From IMG/VR virus record IMGVR_UViG_3300050014_000899: 64,000 nucleotides of DNA. One strand, given 5' to 3'. Both the position numbers and the translations under genes were made by a program. This stretch comes from a virus. Below the pieces are notes generated by a model. That model was not told where the DNA came from, did no database searches, and saw nothing but the letters and a program-made list of their open reading frames with translations. Positions within the stretch are counted from its first letter, which is position 1. Each line of letters opens with the position of its first letter. Of the stretch, positions 3,685 to 39,834 are shown piece by piece.

Positions 3685-3786
3685 ATATGTAGTAAGAAAA
3701 GGGTTACATCGGTTATGATTGGTTCGATTCCAATTTTACCCTGCGAAAGCTCGGGTGAATTAAAGCTCTTTTCAATTTTCTCATAT
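3685..3786 (+). ncRNA. Y RNA (YrlA)-like RNA 1
   Basis: GTAGTAA..GGGTTACATCG...CTC..TTTTCTC scaffold enclosing a T arm and loop-closed acceptor stem. Confidence 0.6.
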
Positions 3787-3792
3787 CGTTTT

Positions 3793-3866
3793 GTCGATAA
3801 TAGTTTAATGGTAGAATATCCAGCGGTAAAACGAGGGAAGGAACCGGTTCGATTCCGGCTAAGACT
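3793..3866 (+). pseudogene. degenerate tRNA-like element
   Basis: D arm TAGTTTAATGGTAGAATA and T arm CCGG-TTCGATT-CCGG, no regular anticodon arm. Confidence 0.5.
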
Positions 3867-3869
3867 CCT

Positions 3870-4019
3870 GGGAGTATAGCTCAATGGTAGAGCAATTGGC
3901 TGTCTACAGACAGAAGTGTCTGAATAAAAACTTTAGGTGAAGTCTTATGAAGTTAAAGGAATCAAAATCCTCTTCATCTGCTAACCAATAGGTTCTGGGT
4001 TCGAGTCCCTGTGCCCCCG
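3870..4019 (+). tRNA. tRNA (Asn-like body) interrupted by a 78-nt insert in the anticodon loop
   Basis: attgg-CTGT[3904-3981]TAA-ccaat; intact D and T arms; G73. Confidence 0.7.
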
Positions 4020-14291: not shown

Positions 14292-14368
14292 GGTGGTATT
14301 AGTGTTAGTGGTAAGCACGAAAGTCTGTGGAACTTTTAGGATGGGTTCGAATCCCATATAACACCCCA
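14292..14368 (+). tRNA. tRNA-His(GTG)
   Basis: aaagt-CT GTG GA-acttt; encoded G-1, C73 and CCA. Confidence 0.88.
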
Positions 14369-14372
14369 TTAT

Positions 14373-14452
14373 GGTAGACGTAGCTTAATTGGTTAAAGGG
14401 CCAGATTGTGGATCTGATGCGATTGAGGGTTCGAATCCCTTCGTCTACCCCA
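14373..14452 (+). tRNA. tRNA-His(GTG)
   Basis: caga-TT GTG GA-tctg; encoded G-1, C73 and CCA. Confidence 0.88.
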
Positions 14453-17655: not shown

Positions 17656-20296
17656 ATGGAAGAAATGGATCCCAGAGACGTAAAAGATAAAGATGGCAAC
17701 ATCGTTATGAACTGTACTGGTTACGAAGCTTATCTCAAAGAAAACGGAAAACTCAGCTTAAAAGGAATGAAAAGAGGAGACCAGATTGAGGTTAGTACTT
17801 ACTGGGGGAGCAAAAGAGTCGTAGTAGATGGTTTCGAGGATAATCATATTTTCTGCGATGATGATGGTGTTGAAATGTGTGTTGCTTTACAACAGGATTC
17901 TGGAAGACTTATGTTTGTTGATAGAACTGAAAGATAATGGCAAAAGAAACCGAATTACACAGAGCTATAATGAGTAGCCGAGAAATCTCCTTCGAAGAAG
18001 CAGATGATTTGATTGCTGAAATGAAAGAACGATTCAAAGAAGGGGAAGACCCGGAAGAGGTTCTTTTAAGCGAAGGATATGAACCTGATTACGTATTTGA
18101 TATATTATTTGACTAATGAAAACATTTGAAGAAATCGACATTACTGCTCCTCTTTTGAAAGAGGAATTCTTCATGTTATTTGATACTCAGCTTCCATTAA
18201 ATGATGCTGAAAAGAAGAAAATAAATGAAGACTATTTTCCCTTATATGCTTTATTTATAACTGATGGCGGAGTTACGCCGGAAGTAGCATTTGAAGCAAC
18301 CAAAACAGTTTTTTATAGTCAGGAAACTCAGATTAAAGAACGTCTCGATGGAAAAATTTGAAAATACAGGAAAAACAACCCATTGCGATGCATTGGGAAA
18401 TCCTATTGAAATAGGCAAGGCTTATGGTTTTTCTAAAAATGTAAACGGTCTTACCCAAGTCATAATAGGGGTTGCTAAAAAACTTACTGATCATGGGGTA
18501 ACTCTTACCGTAATCAGTTCTTGCAAAGCTCTTTATGATTATGATTCGGAACCTGAAGAAACAAAAGCATCTGTAACAACTCGAGGAATGATGATGTTTC
18601 CTATTCCGCCAGCGAAAACTCGTAATCCCGGGACATTTATTCATGGAAACAACAACGGGTTTGCTCATTTGGATGATTAAGATTTAACCAGAATTTAACA
18701 AAAACTTCAAAACTATCTCTAAAACTAGCATAAAAAGAGTGTCCAGAGAGAAGGTAAGAAGGTTACTTATAATAGAAAGGAAAGAAATGGCAACAAATTT
18801 CATGACGACTAAGTTCGATAAGTGGTTAAACAGAGATGTTAAAACCCACAAAAAAGGAGTAACCTTAATCCATTTATTTCACGAAGTATGGAGAACCGGA
18901 AAACTCAATGAGAAAAAAGATAAACCAGCTCACCTGGTTATCTATGATCCCCATGATAAACAATACGATGTTTATGGGCAGGAAGCTTTGGATTTAATGA
19001 GTGCCTACACTCGCGAATTTCGTGGATGCATGAGAGTCGATCCAGCCAAAGTAAAAATCTATATCTTATCTTCAATCCTTGATAAAAAGGAAAACTGGTG
19101 CTTTAATCTTTCGGAAAAACCAGCTGTTGATGCTATGATCAAAGTTATTTATAACAACGGAACGATCAAAGTTATCAAATCTACAGGTAACTGGGAGCCT
19201 GAAGTTATTGACAGAAAATACTCAGAGGATACTTCTATACCTCAAACAATTTACCCGGTTGCTTATAAATGCAAACAATGAAAAGCGATAAAAAATACGT
19301 CGTTTTAGAACATCTAACCCTACCAGATAGAGGTTTTAGATTTTTCACTGCCAATACGGAAGATAATACTCACGGACGTAATGGGGAACTTTGGTATAAA
19401 GAAGTTCTTTTTACCGATAGCACCAAGGAAGCTCAGGAGGCATGTCGAAGTCTTGGCGAGGTTCCATCCATGCATGAATTGGAAGAATATTATAGAAACT
19501 TATTAGAACAAGAAAATGAAAATTAAAGGTTATGTACTCGTTGGGGTTTCCAGAGGGGTTTCCAGAGATGTAAATTTTTACTTCTCTAGATCTCAGGAAA
19601 AATTTGTGGATAGTGTTATGAAATTAAATCTGTCTGATCTGGAAGAAGAACCAAGCGGGGTTGGCCCAACTGAGATGCTTAAGATAAGACAGGATTATCC
19701 GCTTATTGATAGTATCAAAGGATATGCTAAAATCAAAATTAAAATAAAGCTATGAATAGAAGAAACTTGCGTAGAATGATTCTACTTTTAGCCACTGCTG
19801 TTGCTATAATTCTAATGTTATCCAGCTGTATGTGCAAAGGGATGCCCGATGATGCAGTAACAGTCACCACGAATTTTTATGTTACCGATGTTTATGTCGG
19901 CAAATATTCTAAGGTAAAGGGATATATCATTTACAAAGATATAAAAATCCCAGCTGATAATGGTGGTTCTGGATATTATAGTTTAACTGAAGGAAGCGTT
20001 GTTCCGGTAACAATTAGTATTGCTATAGAGAATGATGGGTATAATTCTGTTACTCTTAGAACTTCCGCTCTGGATTTAACCAAATACATTCAATAATGGA
20101 ATTCAATACATGCGGCACTTGTGGTGCTAAAAATGGAAGAGCAGGTCCTCTTATAGCTACAGAAAAAAGCAATCGGGTTTTTGAATGTATGAATTGTCAT
20201 GATACCAGGGAATCTGGAGAAATTACTATTCATACGAATCTATCCAGAACTGATGCAGAAATTGAAAAAACAATGAAAATACTTGATACAAAATGA
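17656..20296 (+). other. run of small hypothetical early-type ORFs
   Basis: abutting ORFs at 17656, 17937, 18116, about 18348, 18739, 19269, 19516, 19752 (lipoprotein-like LSSC) and 20096. Confidence 0.6.
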
Positions 20297-21165
20297 AAGA
20301 CGAATTAGGTGACAGAATGAAGGGTAATTACGAAGACAGAACTCGTTTCTCCCTTCCAAGAAGAACATATACAATTATCCGAGTTGACGGAAAAGCATTT
20401 CACACATTAACAAAGGGGATGTGTAAACCGTTCAGCGTAGATTTTAAACAAAACGTATTTGCTGGTTTTATGGACAAAACAGCAAAAGCTTTATGCGAAC
20501 ATATTCAAGGAGCTCAGTTTGCTTTTGTTCAGTCCGATGAAATCTCAGTTTTGTTAACTGATTTTGAAAAGACTACAACTGATGCATGGTTTGATGCCAA
20601 TATTCAGAAAATGGCTTCCGTAGCTGCTTCAATTGCTACAGCTGCTTTTAACAAAGCTAGACTGATAAGAGTTTTCGAGGAATTCCCCAATACATTTGAT
20701 ATTGAACCTGAATTGGATTGCTATACTGTTGCAAAAATGATCGATATGGTTAAAGTTGGGGAATTTGATGCAAGAGTATTTACTATCCCGGATCCAATAG
20801 AAGTTGAAAACTACTTTATATGGAGACAAAAAGATGCCGTAAGAAACTCTGTTTCGATGGCCGCTAAATCTCTTTATTCAACAAAAGAACTCGAAGGAGT
20901 ATCTTCTCAGGGAAAACTGGATTTGATTCACGATAAAGGAGAAAATTGGAATGATCTCCCCGATGGATTTAAAAGAGGACGTTTAATATCTTACAACTAT
21001 TCTTTTGATCTTGAAACTGCTCCTTTAAATACTGGATCCTTTAAAGAAGAACACCAAATGGTTGAGGGGGTTTCCAGAGGAGCTTGGGAAGTTAATCCTG
21101 CTCCGGATTTTCTTAAGGAAAGGGATGAGTTGAGAGACCGTATTCCAAAAATAGAAGTAAATTAA
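20293..21165 (+). CDS. Thg1-like tRNA(His) guanylyltransferase / 3'-5' polymerase
   Basis: RVDGKAFH, VQSDEIS, FDARVF, YFIWRQKDAVRNS. Confidence 0.92.
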   Translation: MKDELGDRMKGNYEDRTRFSLPRRTYTIIRVDGKAFHTLTKGMCKPFSVDFKQNVFAGFMDKTAKALCEHIQGAQFAFVQSDEISVLLTDFEKTTTDAWFDANIQKMASVAASIATAAFNKARLIRVFEEFPNTFDIEPELDCYTVAKMIDMVKVGEFDARVFTIPDPIEVENYFIWRQKDAVRNSVSMAAKSLYSTKELEGVSSQGKLDLIHDKGENWNDLPDGFKRGRLISYNYSFDLETAPLNTGSFKEEHQMVEGVSRGAWEVNPAPDFLKERDELRDRIPKIEVN

Positions 21166-21201
21166 TTTTTTTACTAAGGATTTTTGTTGTACATTTGCTT
21201 T

Positions 21202-21729
21202 ATGAATAAGTATTTAATCTACGGACTTTATTGCCCATTTACCGATAACTTACATTATGTCGGACAAAGCAGTACCGGAATGACGAGACCCAAATCTCAT
21301 ATGACCGGAAGAAGTTCAAAGAAAATAGGTGAATGGGTTGACCAATTAAAATTTTTAGGATATAAGCCTATAATTAAAATACTTGAAGAATGCTCAAAAG
21401 ATAATCTTGATGAAAAAGAAAAATATTGGATTAAAAAATCCAAAGATGAGGGGGCATATCTTTTAAATGTTGTGTACAACAAAACTGAGAAGATATTATT
21501 TCAAAAAGAATATGAATTTAGTGATGCGGATATTTTAACTATTGCTAAAATAATTCGAGAAACCCGCCACAAATTAGATATTCGTCAAGAGGATTTATGC
21601 GAAGCAGCAGGAATTACTCGTCCAACTTTATACATGATTGAAAAAGGAAACAATAAAACAGTTTATAATAATTTGAAAAAGGTTTTGGGGATTTTGGGAT
21701 TTGAAATTACGATTCGAAAAAAATCATAA
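21202..21729 (+). CDS. GIY-YIG nuclease fused to XRE HTH (paralog of 1512..2063)
   Basis: LIYGLYCP...YVGQS; IRQEDLCEAAGITRPTLYMIEKG; start moved downstream of TACATTTG. Confidence 0.75.
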   Translation: MNKYLIYGLYCPFTDNLHYVGQSSTGMTRPKSHMTGRSSKKIGEWVDQLKFLGYKPIIKILEECSKDNLDEKEKYWIKKSKDEGAYLLNVVYNKTEKILFQKEYEFSDADILTIAKIIRETRHKLDIRQEDLCEAAGITRPTLYMIEKGNNKTVYNNLKKVLGILGFEITIRKKS

Positions 21730-21782
21730 CGTCAAATATCTTTTACAAAGGCCCCGGTAAATTCGCAAATATAATTGACATT

Positions 21783-22055
21783 ATGGAAAATACTACATTT
21801 GACAATAAACAAAAGGAACTTAGGGAACAACTCATGGCAAGACCTACCCCGGTTCACTTTACTTACAGAAAAGCTGATGGAACTATCAGAGATGCCATTG
21901 GTACCCTTCGTCCTGGATTAATTCCGGTAAGCAAAGAACCTAAGTCTCCTAATTTAAACGACAATCCAAGTCTTAATCTGAGATATTATGATCTTCAGAA
22001 AGAGGCTTGGAGGTCTTTAACACAGGATTGTTCAATTATAAATATTTTGGACTAG
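21783..22055 (+). CDS. WYL-like/SH3 beta-barrel protein
   Basis: VHFTYRKADGTIRDAIGTL...YYDLQKEAWRS. Confidence 0.7.
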   Translation: MENTTFDNKQKELREQLMARPTPVHFTYRKADGTIRDAIGTLRPGLIPVSKEPKSPNLNDNPSLNLRYYDLQKEAWRSLTQDCSIINILD

Positions 22056-22114
22056 GTTAAATGATGGAACAAAACTTTTTAGAAGATTTTGATATATAAT
22101 ACAAAAACAATATT

Positions 22115-22693
22115 ATGTTTTATGTATATCAATTAAGTTCTTTATCTTACGGGGTTTTTTATATTGGAAAAGGAAAAGGAAACAGAATGTACCGGCATAG
22201 TGAAATAGCTCGGGGAAATTCTATTAATAGGAAAACTAATATTCATTTGTATAACCGAATTTTAAAAATTATTCAGTCAGATGAAAAATTGGTTTATAAA
22301 AAAATATTTACTTCTGAAAATGAGGAGGAATGTTTAAAAGTTGAAATCCAATATATTAAGGAATATGGAACTTTTCATAAAGTTAAAGGAATTAAGCGAG
22401 GCCCTTTATTAAATTTGACACTAGGTGGAGAAGGAACTTCCGGATATACATTATCCGAAGAGACAAAAGAAAAAATGTCAAAAGCAAAAAAAGGAAAAAG
22501 TTTGCCTAAATGGTCGGATGAGTCGAAAGAAAAGTTGTCAAAAACAAATATGGGGAAGAAGGGATTCTGGGAAGGAAAAAATTTATCCGAAAAAACAAAA
22601 GAGAACATGAGCAAATCTCATCTTGGAAAAAATAAAGGACCCATTTCTGAGAAACGAAGATTAGCTATTATAGAAGGAATGAAAAAATATTGA
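22115..22693 (+). CDS. GIY-YIG homing endonuclease with NUMOD3 repeats
   Basis: FYVY..FYIGKG..R; LLNLTLGGEG; SEETKEKMS. Confidence 0.85.
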   Translation: MFYVYQLSSLSYGVFYIGKGKGNRMYRHSEIARGNSINRKTNIHLYNRILKIIQSDEKLVYKKIFTSENEEECLKVEIQYIKEYGTFHKVKGIKRGPLLNLTLGGEGTSGYTLSEETKEKMSKAKKGKSLPKWSDESKEKLSKTNMGKKGFWEGKNLSEKTKENMSKSHLGKNKGPISEKRRLAIIEGMKKY

Positions 22694-22890
22694 TACAGAG
22701 AATTCGTCGCACTACGGTGAGAAACTTCAGTCCATCACAGCTGAAAGCGGGAGATCTAACTAATCGTTAATACCGCTGAGAGATGCAACTTAAACAGACT
22801 TAGACTAAAAGCTGATCAATGATAGTCGGGTTAAGGCCAATAGACAAATGACGAAATAAAGCAAAAGACTGGGTACGCTCATATCAATAT
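22687..22890 (+). ncRNA. rnpB: minimal RNase P RNA
   Basis: P1 ATATTGATA/TATCAATAT; P2 TTCGTCG/TGACGAA; P3 CAC-TACG-GTG; P4 GAGAAAC-T-TCAGT/ACTGG-GT with bulged U; TAGACAAATG before P2'. Confidence 0.7.
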
Positions 22891-22895
22891 TAAAT

Positions 22896-23003
22896 GGTTT
22901 CGTAGCTTAGGGGCAGAGTACTGGCGGAACATGCGGGGAGCGAGAGATCGTCCGTAATGACCTAGAGGCATACGGGGCGGAGGTTCGATTCCTTCCGAGA
23001 CCA
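22896..23003 (+). ncRNA. tRNA-like RNA with expanded anticodon domain
   Basis: GGTTTCG/CGAGACC acceptor, D arm, T arm GGAGG-TTCGATT-CCTTC, about 55-nt middle domain. Confidence 0.55.
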
Positions 23004-23016
23004 CAAAAATTAAATT

Positions 23017-23550
23017 ATGAACACAAAACAGATTGCAGTTACAGGAGATTTGGCTTTAGGGAATTCGGTAAAACCCCTTTTGAAAAATACAGAACTTTAT
23101 TGCGAAGTCTGTAAAGACTACACTGAACACGAAGAAGGTGAAATCACAAAATGTATGGTTTGCGGCTCCGTCTATCGGAATGTTAAAAGATATATCATCT
23201 GCGGTAAACCTGATAATGCAGAAGTAATTGCAGCTCGCGAGGCATTATTGGACAAAGAACCCGATGTTATTATCATCGATGAAGAGGTTGCTTGGAAACA
23301 TAAGGTTAAAGGATTTTCTAACAATCCATTCCAATCTCGCCCAACAATGCCAATCTATCCTAATCCCGAATTATTTCAGGGTTTAGAAGATATGAGATAT
23401 GATCATCTTTCCAAAAGAGAAAGAAATGCTGTTATTGAGCCGGTTCGTACCGAACCTAAATACCAAAGGAACGAACCATGTCCTTGCGGTAAAACCGACG
23501 ATAATGGTAAGAGATTAAAATACAAAAAATGCTGTGGAAAAAATGGCTAA
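23017..23550 (+). CDS. SEC-C motif protein
   Basis: RNEPCPCG...KYKKCCG. Confidence 0.75.
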   Translation: MNTKQIAVTGDLALGNSVKPLLKNTELYCEVCKDYTEHEEGEITKCMVCGSVYRNVKRYIICGKPDNAEVIAAREALLDKEPDVIIIDEEVAWKHKVKGFSNNPFQSRPTMPIYPNPELFQGLEDMRYDHLSKRERNAVIEPVRTEPKYQRNEPCPCGKTDDNGKRLKYKKCCGKNG

Positions 23551-24494
23551 GAAAGAAAAAAGAATCAAAAATCAGGACATTATTGATTTCCGATATTGGC
23601 TAATCAATCAGATGTATCCCGGATCAGTTCCCGATACTTCAAGCACTTCTTTTATTGTTAATGGAAAGAAAAGAGAAATGGATCCGTATGAAAGAGCAGT
23701 CTATGATGAAGTGCTGCTTCAGTTTAACAGTCACTTTGGAGTAAGAGGTTATGATATAGGATAATTATGGCTATAAATTTTGCAGAGTTAGATAAGGAGC
23801 TCAAGGAGGGTCCGCTAACAAGAGACGAATTATTAATCATTGAAAGATTTGAAAATCAGATCGACAAAGATATAAAAAGACAATATACTGGAAACAACTC
23901 GGTTCATATTTCTGATCATCAAGTTGAGTTTACTTTTGACTCAATACAGGATCGTCAATTAAATCTTCCTTATGCCCGAAGAAAAATCATGACAAAAGAA
24001 CTTTTGAATCGATATGATAGAGCTGGATGGAAAGTTCAGAAGGATTCAGGTGGAGAAGATGATGGCCCAAATCGTCCAGCAATTCCATTTTACGTATTCA
24101 CAGGCAAAACCTTAAGATAATGTATACGGATGCACTTTCACTCGAAGAAAAGAAATACAGGCAAACAAAGTCTGTAAGGTGGTTAGATACACCAGAGGGA
24201 ACTATTTGGGCAACATATGGTTTTAGAAACTATATCCAGCCCGTTGATCCGAATTTAAGATATACCCCGCTTGGAGTTGATCTTGATCTTTTGTTTGATG
24301 AAGATGAAGCAATATTTGAACCTACAAAATAATATGGCTAAAATTATTATTGATCCCGTCGGAGACTATGATGTAAATTGGAGAAGGGGTCTTTGGAAAT
24401 CTGTTTGGAAAAATGCTTTTATTCCAGAAGGTTTGCGAGGAAAAATCAAAATAGTTTTTGATAAGAAAGACGGGCATCCTATAATTAAAAAGAA

Positions 24495-35642: not shown

Positions 35643-38009
35643 ATGAGTCAAAGAAACGTATTGATCCTTGAAAGATCGAGCCAAAACCTTCAAAAGATAA
35701 GTAAAGAAGGAAAAGTTGTCCTAGAAGGTGTCTTTGCCGAATTCGGAGTCGAAAACAGAAATGGACGTATTTACGAGGAAAAGGAATACCTTCCACATTT
35801 GGAATATCTAAAGAAAGATATTGCATCAGGTAACTTACTTGGCGAACTAGATCACCCAGAACGTTTTGAAGTAGCCTTAGGCAGTGTTTCTCACAGAATT
35901 TCCGAACTTTGGTATGACCAATCCGCTAGACAAATTAAAGGTAGAATTGAGGTTCTCAATACACCTAAAGGCCAGATCGCTAAATCTCTTTTAGAAGCTG
36001 GTATCCCACTTTCAATCTCTTCACGTGCCGCTGGTACGGTCAATGAAGACAAAACCGTTTCAATTCAGCAAATTTACACTTATGACTTAGTTGCTAAGCC
36101 AGGGTTTGAGAATGCCCAATTGTCAACCGTTAATGAAGGTGCTAAGGCACGTATTCAGAGTCAAATTTCTAAACTAAATGAGTCTTACAGTAAAGGTGCG
36201 TCTCATAACGTTGCCAAGACTGAATTTGGTATAGTCAATGAAAATATTACTATTGTCGATTTAACTGACAAATTTCCATCAGTTAAGTTGAGGGAAGAGG
36301 CAATTGCCCTTCAAAACCCAAACGTTAAAAATAAAAGCGAGTTTAAAATGGAAAATGTTAATGAAGATCAGGCTCTTCAGCAATGGACAGTATTCTTTAA
36401 AAACGAGCTTAGCAAAATGAACCAAAAGTTAACTTCAATTGAGAACACTATTCTTGAAGGAACTAATGAAGGTGTTGCCAAAGAAATTGGAATTATTAAG
36501 GAATACCTTGAAAAACTAAGAGGCGTTCAAGAAAAATCTCTTAATTGGACAGGCGATATTGCTAAAGCAGTTAACAAAGTTGCTACCTATGCAGACACTC
36601 TTGCAGAAAAGAACAACGTTCACTACAAACTTACAAAGAAAGTAGTTGAGACAGTTGATCACAATGCTAAGACTTTAAATGCAACCCAGGACTGGGTAGG
36701 TAACAATGCAAAGATTCTTAATATTGTTGCAGAAACAGTAGACCACAATGCAGAAATGACAAACGGTCTAAATGAATGGAACGGCCAAATTTCTAAGGCA
36801 GTTAATGCACTCCATGAATGGGGTGGCGAAAAAGCAAAAGCAATTAATGGAATTCACGAGTGGACTTCATCTATTGCAAAGAATGTAAACGAAATGGCAA
36901 ACTGGTCAGAAGACATGTTCGGAAGAGCAGTTAGCAAAGAAGATGCGAAGACTCTTATTAAATATATCGAGTTGGTAGCTGAATCCAAAAAGGATCCTGA
37001 ACTCAAGGCAAAACTTGACGAAACACTATCTAAACATGGGATCACCGAAAAACCATTAACCGAATCTATGATCACAGGAATTAAAGGAATTAAAGGACTC
37101 GGTGTTATCACAGACGTTACTAAAATTGGCAACGAAAAAGTAAACACCGATGCTGGCAAGAGTGCTGGCGTAACCTTCGATGGTAAAACTATCGTTGCGA
37201 AAATGAATAAATCTAAAGTTGGTTCTGGAAACAAACCAAAGGCTCTAAAGACGATCGAAGATCAGAAAATGGAACCAGGTAAAGTATCCGGAGCTAAAGT
37301 AAAAGGAATTATGGTTCTTGACAAAATCAGCGGAACCCTACATTCTGTAAAAGGAACCTCAACAGAAGGTAATCTCAAAACTTCAAAACAGAACATGAAG
37401 CTTGATACCAAACCTGCTGGAAAGGGATTTATAACCGAAAAACAGGAAACTCCAATTCTTACAAAGGCACCCGCCATTAAAGAAAGAGCTTCTAAACTCG
37501 ATGAGAAACTAAGTGCAATCATTACCAATATCGAAAAAGAAAAGACTTTGATTGAAAACGCGAGGGCTCAATATCCATTTATCGCTCTCTTAGCTGAAAG
37601 TGATAAGAAAGATTTTGCTGCACTATCAGACTCCGACAAAAAGAAGGTAGCCGCAGAAGTTAGCAAAAATCCAACTGTTGATTCTGGAACAATTAAAGGA
37701 CTATGGTCAGCTGCATTAGTTGAAAACAAAGTTGAAGAACCATTATGGTTAGCACTTGCTCCAAAAGAGTACAAAGAGCTATACACAAAGGCTTCTCCCG
37801 TTATGCAGGAATCTATTAAAGCTAGATCAGAATTCTATCCTCTAGAAACACAGTACCAAATCATCAATTTCTGGGAAACTTCTAAGATTGCCCCAAGAAC
37901 ATCAAGCCTCAATGAGGTCTTCGTTGCTCCAGGCGTTAAGGGAGAAGAACCAAAAATGGACCCATTCATCGCTCAAATCGGTGAAGAAATGAAAAGGTAT
38001 CAGAGATAA
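35643..38009 (+). CDS. prohead protease (T4 gp21-like) fused to long scaffold-like region
   Basis: LEGVF..NRNGRIY; LGELDHP; VSHRI; ISSRAAG; YDLVAKPGF. Confidence 0.9.
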   Translation: MSQRNVLILERSSQNLQKISKEGKVVLEGVFAEFGVENRNGRIYEEKEYLPHLEYLKKDIASGNLLGELDHPERFEVALGSVSHRISELWYDQSARQIKGRIEVLNTPKGQIAKSLLEAGIPLSISSRAAGTVNEDKTVSIQQIYTYDLVAKPGFENAQLSTVNEGAKARIQSQISKLNESYSKGASHNVAKTEFGIVNENITIVDLTDKFPSVKLREEAIALQNPNVKNKSEFKMENVNEDQALQQWTVFFKNELSKMNQKLTSIENTILEGTNEGVAKEIGIIKEYLEKLRGVQEKSLNWTGDIAKAVNKVATYADTLAEKNNVHYKLTKKVVETVDHNAKTLNATQDWVGNNAKILNIVAETVDHNAEMTNGLNEWNGQISKAVNALHEWGGEKAKAINGIHEWTSSIAKNVNEMANWSEDMFGRAVSKEDAKTLIKYIELVAESKKDPELKAKLDETLSKHGITEKPLTESMITGIKGIKGLGVITDVTKIGNEKVNTDAGKSAGVTFDGKTIVAKMNKSKVGSGNKPKALKTIEDQKMEPGKVSGAKVKGIMVLDKISGTLHSVKGTSTEGNLKTSKQNMKLDTKPAGKGFITEKQETPILTKAPAIKERASKLDEKLSAIITNIEKEKTLIENARAQYPFIALLAESDKKDFAALSDSDKKKVAAEVSKNPTVDSGTIKGLWSAALVENKVEEPLWLALAPKEYKELYTKASPVMQESIKARSEFYPLETQYQIINFWETSKIAPRTSSLNEVFVAPGVKGEEPKMDPFIAQIGEEMKRYQR

Positions 38010-38079: not shown

Positions 38080-39834
38080 ATGAAACAATTAAACGAACAA
38101 CAAATCGTAGAAAAATGGAGTCCTATGATTGAGTCTACAACCGGTCTTAAAGATAAGTCAAGACTTAATTGGATTTCTAAATACGCTCATTTTCACGCCT
38201 TAAACGAGGCTGACATGGGTGGTGTATCTGCACCATATGCAACTCTATTCAATGTTCCTGGCGTTGGTAATGCTCAGCCTGCTTCTCAGGCAGCTACAAC
38301 TGGTAACCAGTTCTATCAGCAAGGTACAAAGGGTTCAGGTGACAAATGGCCTGCACTTCTTCCAATGGCTCTTCAGGTTGCTGCAAGAACAGTTGGTTTC
38401 GACATCGTTAACGTAATTCCTATGGCTGGTCCAACTGGCGTAGTTTCTTACCTTGATTATGTATACGCTGGTGGAAAACAGCCTTATGGCGCTCCTCCTG
38501 CTCACGATCCAAACTCAGCTAACCCTCCTTATTTCCAGGGAAGCAACGCAACCGGAAAATTTGAAGCTCCACTTGCATTCAAAATCCAGCTAAAAGCTGT
38601 TGATGCTTCTGCAGTTGTAGCCGGACTTTACAATGGTGAAGTTGTTACATTCCAGAATGGCGGACCTTCAATTCAGGTTACAGCTACTTATATTGGAAAA
38701 TCACGTATTGATGGTTTTGCAATGTTTAAAACAGGCGCTTTCACAGGAACAACCAAGAACTTAGCAGAAGTATTTGATGGCTCAGCTATCATCGTTTCTG
38801 ACACATCAGTTGGTGGTGTTGTTACTACTTACCCAACCTTAGTTTCTACTCTTGAAGATCAGATCCAGGGATTCACTGGCGCTGGCGAACAGGACAATAA
38901 CGCATGGCAGGGAACATTCGTATCAGGTACAACCCTTTACGAACCTATGGAAAGAGGCGTTGGTGAAATGCAGTACCCAAGGGCTTTAGGTCTTCAGGTA
39001 TTCACCAAATTCGTTACCGTTGGAACTTACCAGGTATCAGTTTCTGTAACTCAGGAACAAATTCAGGACCTTAACAAACAGTGGGGTATTGATGTTATCG
39101 CAATGGTAGAAAACGCTGGTATCAACGAAATCAGCCAGTCAATTAACAAACACATCCTTTCAAGATTATTCGGTCTAGGATGGAAGAACCACCTTAGAGC
39201 TTACAATGCTGAAGCTATTAACCTTAACTTCAGAGTAGACTCATCAGCTGACGGCGTAACTGCTGCTTATGCTTATCCAGATGGCGACACCACTTTCTCA
39301 ACCGCAACAATGATCATCCCAGGTTATAGAAGCTATGGCCCAGCTAACACTGGATCATTCGAAAACCAGGATACAGCTATCAAGAGAATTATGGCTCTTA
39401 TACTAGCTGGTGGAAACGTTATTATGCAACGTGGTCGTAGAGGCCCAGCTAACTTTATCGTTACAAACATAAAGATTGCTACCGCTCTTCAGACAAACGC
39501 ACAGTACACATTCTCCCCAATCGCTAACACATTCAACCAGAATAACGGATCTCTTTATCCACTCGGAACCATCGCAGGAATGACATTATATGTTGATCCT
39601 AACATGATGTACGAAGACACAAGAGTACTTATCGGAAGAAAAGGTGCTAGTGACGAACCAGGAACAGTATTCTGCCCATACTTAATGGCTGAATCAGTAA
39701 AACTCATCACCGAAGGAACAGGTGCTCCAAAGGTAATCATCAAATCAAGATACGCTCTTGTAGATGCAGGTTTCCATCCTGAGACCCAGTATCTCTGCTT
39801 GTACATCAAGACAAACGCAGGTGCATTACTTTAA
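38080..39834 (+). CDS. major capsid protein (T4 gp23-like)
   Basis: VIPMAGPTG; EQIQDL; EISQSINKHI; GRRGPANF; FCPY; KSRYAL. Confidence 0.93.
   Translation: MKQLNEQQIVEKWSPMIESTTGLKDKSRLNWISKYAHFHALNEADMGGVSAPYATLFNVPGVGNAQPASQAATTGNQFYQQGTKGSGDKWPALLPMALQVAARTVGFDIVNVIPMAGPTGVVSYLDYVYAGGKQPYGAPPAHDPNSANPPYFQGSNATGKFEAPLAFKIQLKAVDASAVVAGLYNGEVVTFQNGGPSIQVTATYIGKSRIDGFAMFKTGAFTGTTKNLAEVFDGSAIIVSDTSVGGVVTTYPTLVSTLEDQIQGFTGAGEQDNNAWQGTFVSGTTLYEPMERGVGEMQYPRALGLQVFTKFVTVGTYQVSVSVTQEQIQDLNKQWGIDVIAMVENAGINEISQSINKHILSRLFGLGWKNHLRAYNAEAINLNFRVDSSADGVTAAYAYPDGDTTFSTATMIIPGYRSYGPANTGSFENQDTAIKRIMALILAGGNVIMQRGRRGPANFIVTNIKIATALQTNAQYTFSPIANTFNQNNGSLYPLGTIAGMTLYVDPNMMYEDTRVLIGRKGASDEPGTVFCPYLMAESVKLITEGTGAPKVIIKSRYALVDAGFHPETQYLCLYIKTNAGALL

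Follow-up and report, generated by a model that had tools for sequence, protein, structure and literature searches.

In a 64,000-nucleotide (nt) stretch of viral DNA (IMG/VR record IMGVR_UViG_3300050014_000899), referred to below as the window, the 204 nt at positions 22687-22890 of the plus strand were confirmed to be a genuine, conserved and structured RNA gene with the architecture of the bacterial type-A RNA of ribonuclease P (RNase P). We propose, at a probability of roughly 70%, that this gene encodes a phage-borne miniature RNase P RNA derived from a type-A ancestor, which would act together with the host protein RnpA in the maturation of the precursor tRNAs (pre-tRNAs) of the phage. 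RNase P RNA, which counts among the two universal ribozymes, has been taken for a cellular and organellar gene. The window is DNA of a tailed phage: two of its genes, at 35643-38009 and 38080-39834, encode a head maturation protease (prohead protease) and a major head protein. This large peat phage carries 26 tRNA genes (Rfam, ARAGORN) along with a Thg1-like gene, and identical DNA is present in full in peat metagenome runs, a possible source. An initial annotation, made from the letters of the window alone, had described a very small, phage-encoded RNase P RNA of about 204 nt at this place, and the description is borne out by the catalytic architecture, the covariation of the helices, the matches of orthologs to an Rfam RNase P model and the phage genes of the window.

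The complete catalytic domain is kept in this RNA (Table 1), namely helices P1-P5, with a bulged U in P4, the P6 pseudoknot, the P15-P17 arm with its GGU loop, and the junctions J3/4, J15/2 and J2/4. The helices P1, P2 and P3 and the P4 pseudoknot with a bulged U, all listed in the initial annotation, are present, and 54 of the 56 modelled base pairs form in the window copy, both failures being located in P17. Across relatives, 10 of the 11 pairs of P1 have changed on both sides and five of the six pairs of P2 are compensatory, while P3 varies in length (3-6 base pairs or more, with UNCG or GNRA loops) and its outer pairs covary. Within J3/4, the residues G33, A34, G35, A37 and A38 are invariant in an alignment of 20 sequences. 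The divergence of P4 from the consensus had been described as compensatory, which proved correct: the window has UCAGUC / GACUGG and the Rfam type-A model GUCCGG / CCCGGC, so that both sides differ and the pairing is kept. The internal loop of the P15-P17 arm is formed by AAACA (22792-22796) opposite GGGUU (22828-22832), and UAGACAAAUGA, which had been reported before P2', is positioned directly 5' of that strand (22841-22851).

The fold is supported by covariation in every helix. Alignment A1 comprises 20 compact members of the family, and its structure was written with 11 helices including two pseudoknots. Standard pairs fill 97.2% of the 1118 cells, compared with 30-45% in controls with the 3' partners shifted by 1-3 columns; changes on both sides were observed in 39 of the 56 pairs, compensatory pairs occur in all helices, and none of 500 shuffles reached any of the observed measures. 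In P4, five of the eight pairs are compensatory, one position being C-G in 10 sequences and G-C in the other 10, and in P6 four of the five pairs are compensatory; P15 and P16 covary as well. The covariance model of the family, R1, was built without the P4 and P6 pseudoknots, and both are nevertheless paired in the 73-row R1 alignment: P4 in 88.8% (5/8 compensatory) and P6 in 97.2% (5/5 compensatory), so that P6 is paired at 97-100% across the two alignments. As the P15-P17 arm held the motif with which relatives were searched, the conservation of its sequence in the collected set is partly a matter of ascertainment; one member that is independent of the motif (family locus L087; loci are numbered in this way below) keeps GAGGUAG, and hence the GGU. 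The strand of the gene is set by G-U pairs, for example a U-G pair of P4 in 18 of the 20 sequences. Folding of the single window sequence by minimum free energy (MFE) gave a structure no better than those of shuffles (z = +0.24) and hence no signal; two pseudoknots are part of the structure, and these are invisible to MFE folding. Taken together, compensatory changes in all helices and invariant junctions across highly diverged phages show that the fold is under purifying selection.

Relatives were reached through the 177-amino-acid protein encoded downstream of the RNA, whose homologs at 65-79% identity lie on contigs that carry the same RNA in the same position. A motif common to three orthologs (AAACAGAYNTAG, then 18-26 nt, then TCGGGTTRRGG) was found at six loci in IMG/VR, on contigs of up to 374 kb (214 and 374 kb among the carriers), and at 73 loci in metagenomes, which reduce to 68 distinct cores. 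Model R1 gave 73 matches in 69 sources, and the family therefore comprises about 70 distinct members on viral and metagenome contigs; complete members measure about 195-293 nt, with a median of 213. In the window, R1 finds a single copy, on the plus strand only. An independent member, which was outside the seed of the model and does not conform to the motif, was detected in the published 642-kb phage LR756502.1 (140.8 bits, E = 2.6e-32), whose record is without annotation. Other searches were empty: blastn of window positions 22000-23600 against GenBank phages returned no relatives, the copy at L008 had no blastn match among phages, and IMG/VR gave no match to a neighbouring protein or to an exact 22-mer. 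A scan of 185,579 species genomes with the motif likewise revealed no members. Its sole hit, in a metagenome-assembled genome of Alistipes (L085), is matched neither by R1 nor by an Rfam RNA and was rejected as a chance match, that genome having its own normal 424-nt type-A RNase P RNA elsewhere.

A connection with known RNase P RNAs is provided by the orthologs. The ortholog at L001 is near-canonical in its conserved segments (GGAGGAAGU... and ...ACAGAAUCGCGGCUAAG) and, with 37.6 bits (E = 3.2e-9), matches positions 1-288, the whole of the Rfam model RNaseP_arch (RF00373). Another batch of 20 members contained four that match this model over its full length, with scores of 31-46 bits and E values between 2e-5 and 7e-10, so that full-length matches are found in L001, L018, L051, L019 and L028. 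In our reading, RF00373 scores best because this model is without P13, P14 and P18, as is the phage RNA. At the gathering score, Rfam reported no RNase P family in the window, and the bacterial model RF00010 (gathering score 100 bits) matched neither the window nor any of 23 family loci. As a positive control, the cellular Alistipes RNA scores 222.9 bits on RF00010; it scores nothing on R1, which sets the family clearly apart from the RNase P RNAs of cells.

As the initial annotation had noted, the specificity domain is reduced: the interval from P6 to P5' measures only about 39 nt (22743-22781), where the Rfam type-A alignment holds P7-P14 with roughly 150 nt or more, and neither ACAGAAA nor GGUAAGGGUGAAA (regions II and III) is present in the window RNA. 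Among relatives, length varies at the hairpin of this stub, and some have larger insertions in the stub. The absence of P18, also recorded there, holds as well, with only a few nt (22836-22839) between P15' and AUAGACAAAUGA. In some relatives this site is occupied by one or two hairpins with GNRA caps, so that P18 is retained there, and these hairpins and the larger stubs fit a progressive loss from a full-size type-A RNA. In two divergent members (L074, 796-964, and L035, 943-1189; 48-78 bits), the stub is replaced by a longer and different region with 'AGGGUUAAUAGUACCACC', which might be a less reduced specificity domain.

Table 1. Elements of the miniature RNase P RNA and adjoining features in the window.
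Feature	Position	Strand	Details
Free-standing GIY-YIG / NUMOD3 homing endonuclease gene	22115-22693	+	Pfam LEM-3_GIY-YIG, NUMOD3; abuts the RNA gene
Whole miniature RNase P RNA gene	22687-22890	+	Family covariance model R1, 200.9 bits, model positions 1-201
P1 5' strand	22687-22700	+	AUAUUGAUA + 2-nt bulge + GAG; pairs with 22878-22890, 11/11 modelled pairs
P2 5' strand	22703-22708	+	UUCGUC; pairs with GACGAA 22850-22855, 6/6 pairs
P3 hairpin	22710-22719	+	CAC-UACG-GUG; conserved CGC just before it
J3/4, conserved region I	22719-22725	+	GAGAAAC; family majority GAGGAAG; type-A consensus GAGGAAAG
P4 5' strand	22724-22732	+	AC(U)UCAGUC, U22726 bulged; pairs with 22867-22874, 8/8 pairs
P5 5' strand	22733-22736	+	CAUC; pairs with GAUG 22782-22785
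P6 pseudoknot 5' strand	22738-22742	+	CAGCU; pairs with AGCUG 22810-22814 in the P17 loop, 5/5 pairs
Specificity-domain remnant	22743-22781	+	P7-like stem 22746-22750/22773-22777, conserved GGAG, 3-bp hairpin 22753-22765, conserved CGUUnnUAC
J5/15, then P15-P16-P17 arm	22786-22835	+	J5/15 CAA; P15 CUU/AAG, P16 GACU/AGUC, P17 22801-22805/22815-22819
J15/2 (J18/2 in full-size RNAs)	22840-22851	+	AUAGACAAAUGA; matches type-A CCuAGAugAAUGg
J2/4 and P4 3' strand, conserved region V	22856-22877	+	AUAAAGCAAAAGACUGGGUACG; P4 3' strand = 22867-22874
Oversized tRNA-like element	22896-23003	+	Rfam tRNA 37.5 bits; acceptor, D and T arms intact; 47 nt replace the anticodon arm

Members of the family frequently lie in tRNA arrays on the same strand. 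A same-strand tRNA gene is situated within 10 nt of the RNA in 10 of 64 members, within 60 nt in 17 and within 1 kb in 31. At L034 tRNA-Ile and tRNA-Val border the RNA on its two sides, at spacers of 0-4 nt, and at L008 and L010 a tRNA-Thr gene ends 3 nt upstream of it; such tight packing suggests that the ends of the RNA are made by tRNA-processing enzymes. The natural reading, and the one put forward in the initial annotation, would be an RNA dedicated to the 5' processing of tRNAs from the phage arrays, which fits the frequent placement of the RNA in such arrays. The accompanying suggestion that non-canonical tRNAs are tolerated would follow reasonably from the loss of the elbow-reading domain but is pure inference. 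Regarding the protein partner, a search of five IMG/VR records of phages with the RNA, including a 374-kb one that is 100% complete, did not find RnpA (PF00825), and phmmer with one Bacteroidota RnpA sequence, a single query of low sensitivity, detected none in the window or the family loci.

We propose the following course of events. The RNA would be transcribed together with its neighbours, and its ends would be trimmed by the tRNA-processing machinery; if RNase P cut at the 5' end of the following tRNA-like element, only 5 nt would remain as a 3' trailer of the RNase P RNA itself. It would then assemble with host RnpA, whose use is postulated since no phage RnpA was found, and remove the 5' leaders of the phage pre-tRNAs. 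Recognition would depend mainly on the substrate's acceptor stem and 3' end and not on the elbow formed by the T and D loops, and tRNAs with abnormal elbows (aberrant D or T regions) could thus be accepted. The gain for the phage would be a capacity for tRNA maturation that is added or secured during infection.

Evidence on the RNA itself comes from metatranscriptome assemblies, which consist of contigs and not reads and so give no ends, strand or level. A peat metatranscriptome, which belongs to a different study from that of the probable source, contains a 151-nt contig identical at 100% to window positions 22700-22849; as carry-over of DNA is possible, this is a hint only. Two further metatranscriptomes (X17 and X18) contain short pieces at 90-95% identity, which represent related members of the family. 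In run X12 no contig covers the flanking open reading frames (ORFs), gaps between contigs being uninformative. A scan of positions 21700-23200 for sigma-70 promoters, the one promoter type covered, and for intrinsic terminators gave counts not above those of shuffles, and the RNA is without a following terminator.

Several observations weigh against a working RNase P in the window phage. At E<=10, Rfam gave no RNase P match on the 1 kb around the window RNA, and the full-length matches of the five orthologs all remain far below the gathering score of 84 bits for RNaseP_arch. The Rfam covariance-model check suggested in the initial annotation thus had a divided outcome, the window copy itself finding no match while orthologs match an RNase P model end to end and R1 matches the window; the null for the window copy, which alone would refute the claim, is overturned by the ortholog matches together with the family model. 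P17 is weak in the window copy (3/5 pairs), and the subclade of the window deviates at two otherwise highly conserved junction sites, with GAGAAAC for GAGGAAG and GCAAAA for ACAGAA. Deletion of P18 from E. coli RNase P RNA, as a model system, lowered the cleavage rate more than 3000-fold (PMC11143913), and by analogy an RNA without P18 and without a specificity domain may work poorly as an enzyme when alone. That the protein partner, if one is needed, is that of the host is an assumption. In addition, the host keeps its own RNase P, and the benefit to the phage is thus predicted only.

A first alternative is that the RNA is an RNase P ribozyme that has been re-targeted to the oversized tRNA-like elements, to other tRNA-like or structured phage RNAs or to host RNAs, with the loss of domains as an adaptation to these substrates. 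It might explain why such elements are located 3-6 nt downstream of the RNA in the window, L002, L022, L036 and L069, and why nearly half of the members are not beside a canonical tRNA. However, the GGU loop and the core that reads the acceptor stem are exactly as for pre-tRNA substrates, many members lie inside ordinary tRNA arrays and a tRNA-like neighbour is found in a minority of members only, and we regard this alternative as unlikely.

A little less probable still is a catalytically dead mimic, which would soak up host RnpA or pre-tRNAs and thereby throttle tRNA maturation in the host or redirect the protein. In the structure of the Thermotoga maritima holoenzyme, the contacts of the protein subunit are reportedly among P2/P3, J3/4, J15/2, J2/4 and P15, so that the conserved elements of the phage RNA would include protein-contacted regions; the lack of a detected phage RnpA and the substitutions in J3/4 and J2/4 of the window copy are also what a decoy would allow. 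A decoy needs no bulged U, spacing of region V, P6 or GGU loop, yet all of these have been maintained through compensatory change in about 70 members, and blocking RNase P would work against a phage that itself has 26 tRNA genes. Finally, a functionless, decaying relic of a captured host rnpB, to which the extensive deletions seen in comparison with cellular RNase P RNA and the homing endonuclease genes beside or inside the gene in several members might point, is very improbable, given the compensatory substitutions in all helices, the invariant junctions across highly diverged phages, the absence of random insertions, deletions and broken helices in the relatives, and the fact that homing endonucleases typically target conserved, functional sequences.

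We return to an RNase P RNA that serves tRNA maturation, for which a more general form can be stated: large, tRNA-rich phages would carry a trans-acting, minimised RNase P RNA that takes over or supplements the 5' maturation of tRNAs, either with RnpA or largely independently of protein, and that reads the acceptor end only. We hold this broader proposal to be slightly better than an even bet. If true, tRNAs with aberrant elbows and tRNA-like RNAs that are poorly handled by the host enzyme would be usable by the phage, and the RNA would be the smallest bacterial-type RNase P RNA known, the first RNase P encoded by a virus and nature's own experiment on how little a catalytic RNA requires. The literature searched, which leaves most subscription journals uncovered and so does not prove absence, contained no account of an RNase P RNA encoded by a phage or virus; a 2024 review of RNase P names phages only as sources of tRNA substrates (PMC11143913). 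A virus-encoded version would add a catalytic RNA to the translation functions of big phages, which include tRNAs, synthetases and ribosomal proteins. Possible reasons for a phage to carry its own RNase P are the load of 26 or more tRNAs, host shut-off and non-canonical tRNAs. The family offers dozens of natural solutions at minimal size, with a 39-nt stub in place of a 150-nt specificity domain and both with and without P18, and bears on long-standing work on enzymes consisting of the catalytic domain only and on substrate recognition. Since no member reaches the Rfam gathering score, the family is invisible to standard annotation, and a dedicated model would annotate the gene in many published huge-phage genomes, such as LR756502.1.

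Homing endonuclease genes are recurrent neighbours of the RNA gene. The stop codon of the endonuclease gene upstream of the RNA in the window (22691-22693) falls inside the 5' strand of P1, and at L005 a free-standing GIY-YIG gene (130-747) lies directly 3' of the RNA gene. The location of GIY-YIG genes directly 5' or 3' of it suggests that the conserved RNA gene is itself a homing target. A second gene, encoding GIY-YIG and helix-turn-helix domains, is present in the window at 21184-21729. In several relatives the RNA gene is split by a GIY-YIG ORF of about 600-800 nt, either at the position of P18 (after P15') or in J2/4 (after P2'). Loci with a split or an insert are L025 (38-283 + 878-945), L055 (751-950 + 85-150, minus strand), L012 (695-892 + 1480-1561), L056 (847-1086 + 157-208), L017, L039 and L010; L010 retains just a degenerate remnant, about 130 nt long. 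The idea that the RNA might be the 3' portion of a group I intron in which the upstream GIY-YIG ORF resides was dropped, as Intron_gpI is unmatched and the RNA of L001 is complete without the ORF.

In the clade of the window, the RNA is always bracketed by a WYL_2 gene (Sm-like SH3 barrel) and the gene for the 177-amino-acid protein, at 21783-22055 and 23017-23550 in the window, at 3718-3990 and 4444-4965 in L001, and at 279-545 and 1045-1572 in L002; the 177-amino-acid protein has a C-terminal zinc motif of the SEC-C type in relatives. As both genes are absent around most other members of the family, the two proteins are probably not obligate partners of the RNA.

The tRNA-like RNA that had been reported to follow immediately does so, starting 5 nt downstream of the RNase P RNA, although ARAGORN misses it. 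Similar oversized elements of 92-120 nt, in which the acceptor, D and T arms are normal and the centre is expanded by 30-47 nt, often occur 3-6 nt after the RNA in the family: besides the window element, they were observed at L002 (938-1029), L001 (4339-4431) and L069, and just 3' of the RNA at L022, L036 and L045, the last three sharing a distinct 'GUAGUUCAAGGAAGAAGAAGAAA...' type that is also missed by ARAGORN. MFE folds of three orthologs of the tRNA-like element gave no common structure in the enlarged central part.

Two features of the tRNA genes touch on processing. A C stands right after the discriminator base in all 26 tRNA and tRNA-like genes, the three letters being CCA in seven, CAA in 15, CUA or CUC in three and CAU in one; a C74 encoded in every gene might be used by the GGU loop of the phage RNase P RNA or by a pathway of 3'-end repair. 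The Thg1-like gene, of the tRNA-His guanylyltransferase family, lies at 20293-21165, 1.5 kb upstream of the RNA, with syntenic counterparts among relatives (L001, 2287-3177), while both tRNA-His genes (14293-14368 and 14374-14452) encode G-1, C73 and CCA in bacterial style. If the miniature RNase P were to cut at +1 instead of -1, Thg1 might restore G-1, which is speculative.

Among known systems, the bacterial type-A RNA (RF00010; E. coli M1 RNA, gene rnpB) is closest in architecture. Both have P1-P5 with the bulged U in P4, P6 pairing into the loop of P17, a P15-P16-P17 arm with a GGU internal loop, and conserved J3/4, J15/2 and J2/4 sequences at the same spacing. The order of elements in the phage family is also that of type A, with a short P6 strand after P5, P15 after GCAA, and the partner of P6 in the loop of P17. 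Signatures of type A that line up with the family are CGC-P3-GAGGAA.GU.C, GCAA (J5/15), AAAyAG, CGGGU, UAGAUrAAUG and aACAGAA....GG.UA; the phage internal loop matches the type-A 'AAAUAG ... CGGGUAgg', and the invariant C, A, A, G, U and A of region V have the exact type-A spacing, 'aACAGAACCCGGCUUAc'. The GGU of the type-A internal loop pairs with the 3'-CCA of tRNA (PMC11143913). Unlike type A, the phage RNA has neither P8-P14, including the motifs of regions II and III, nor P18, is encoded by a phage, and measures 204 nt compared with 424 nt for the Alistipes type-A RNA and 367 positions in the type-A model.

The archaeal RNase P RNA (RF00373) is the best-scoring Rfam model, at full length, on the five orthologs named above, but its specificity domain is mostly skipped in the alignment and the phage RNA stands in a bacteriophage context. 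The closest natural parallel to the reduction is the type T RNA of Pyrobaculum and its relatives (RF02357; PMC13462272), which at about 200 nt has likewise lost most of the specificity domain and kept the catalytic domain. Type T is archaeal (Thermoproteaceae) and cellular and works with Pop5, Rpp30 and L7Ae, whereas the phage RNA has the P6 and the P15-P17 GGU arm of bacterial type A; no RF02357 match was listed in permissive Rfam searches of the window and the family loci. As the two are unrelated in lineage and context, the reduction is convergent. Phage ribozymes tied to tRNA genes or their maturation also include the theta (hepatitis delta virus-like) ribozymes located by phage tRNAs (PMC10879173); these have an unrelated fold and cleave themselves in cis, whereas RNase P acts in trans. 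Bacterial catalytic domains without the specificity domain cleave pre-tRNA with and without protein and bind it more weakly (PMC11143913). Such engineered RNase P RNAs, whether miniature or limited to the catalytic domain, are laboratory deletions, whereas the phage RNA is a natural and widespread counterpart that keeps a conserved 39-nt stub.

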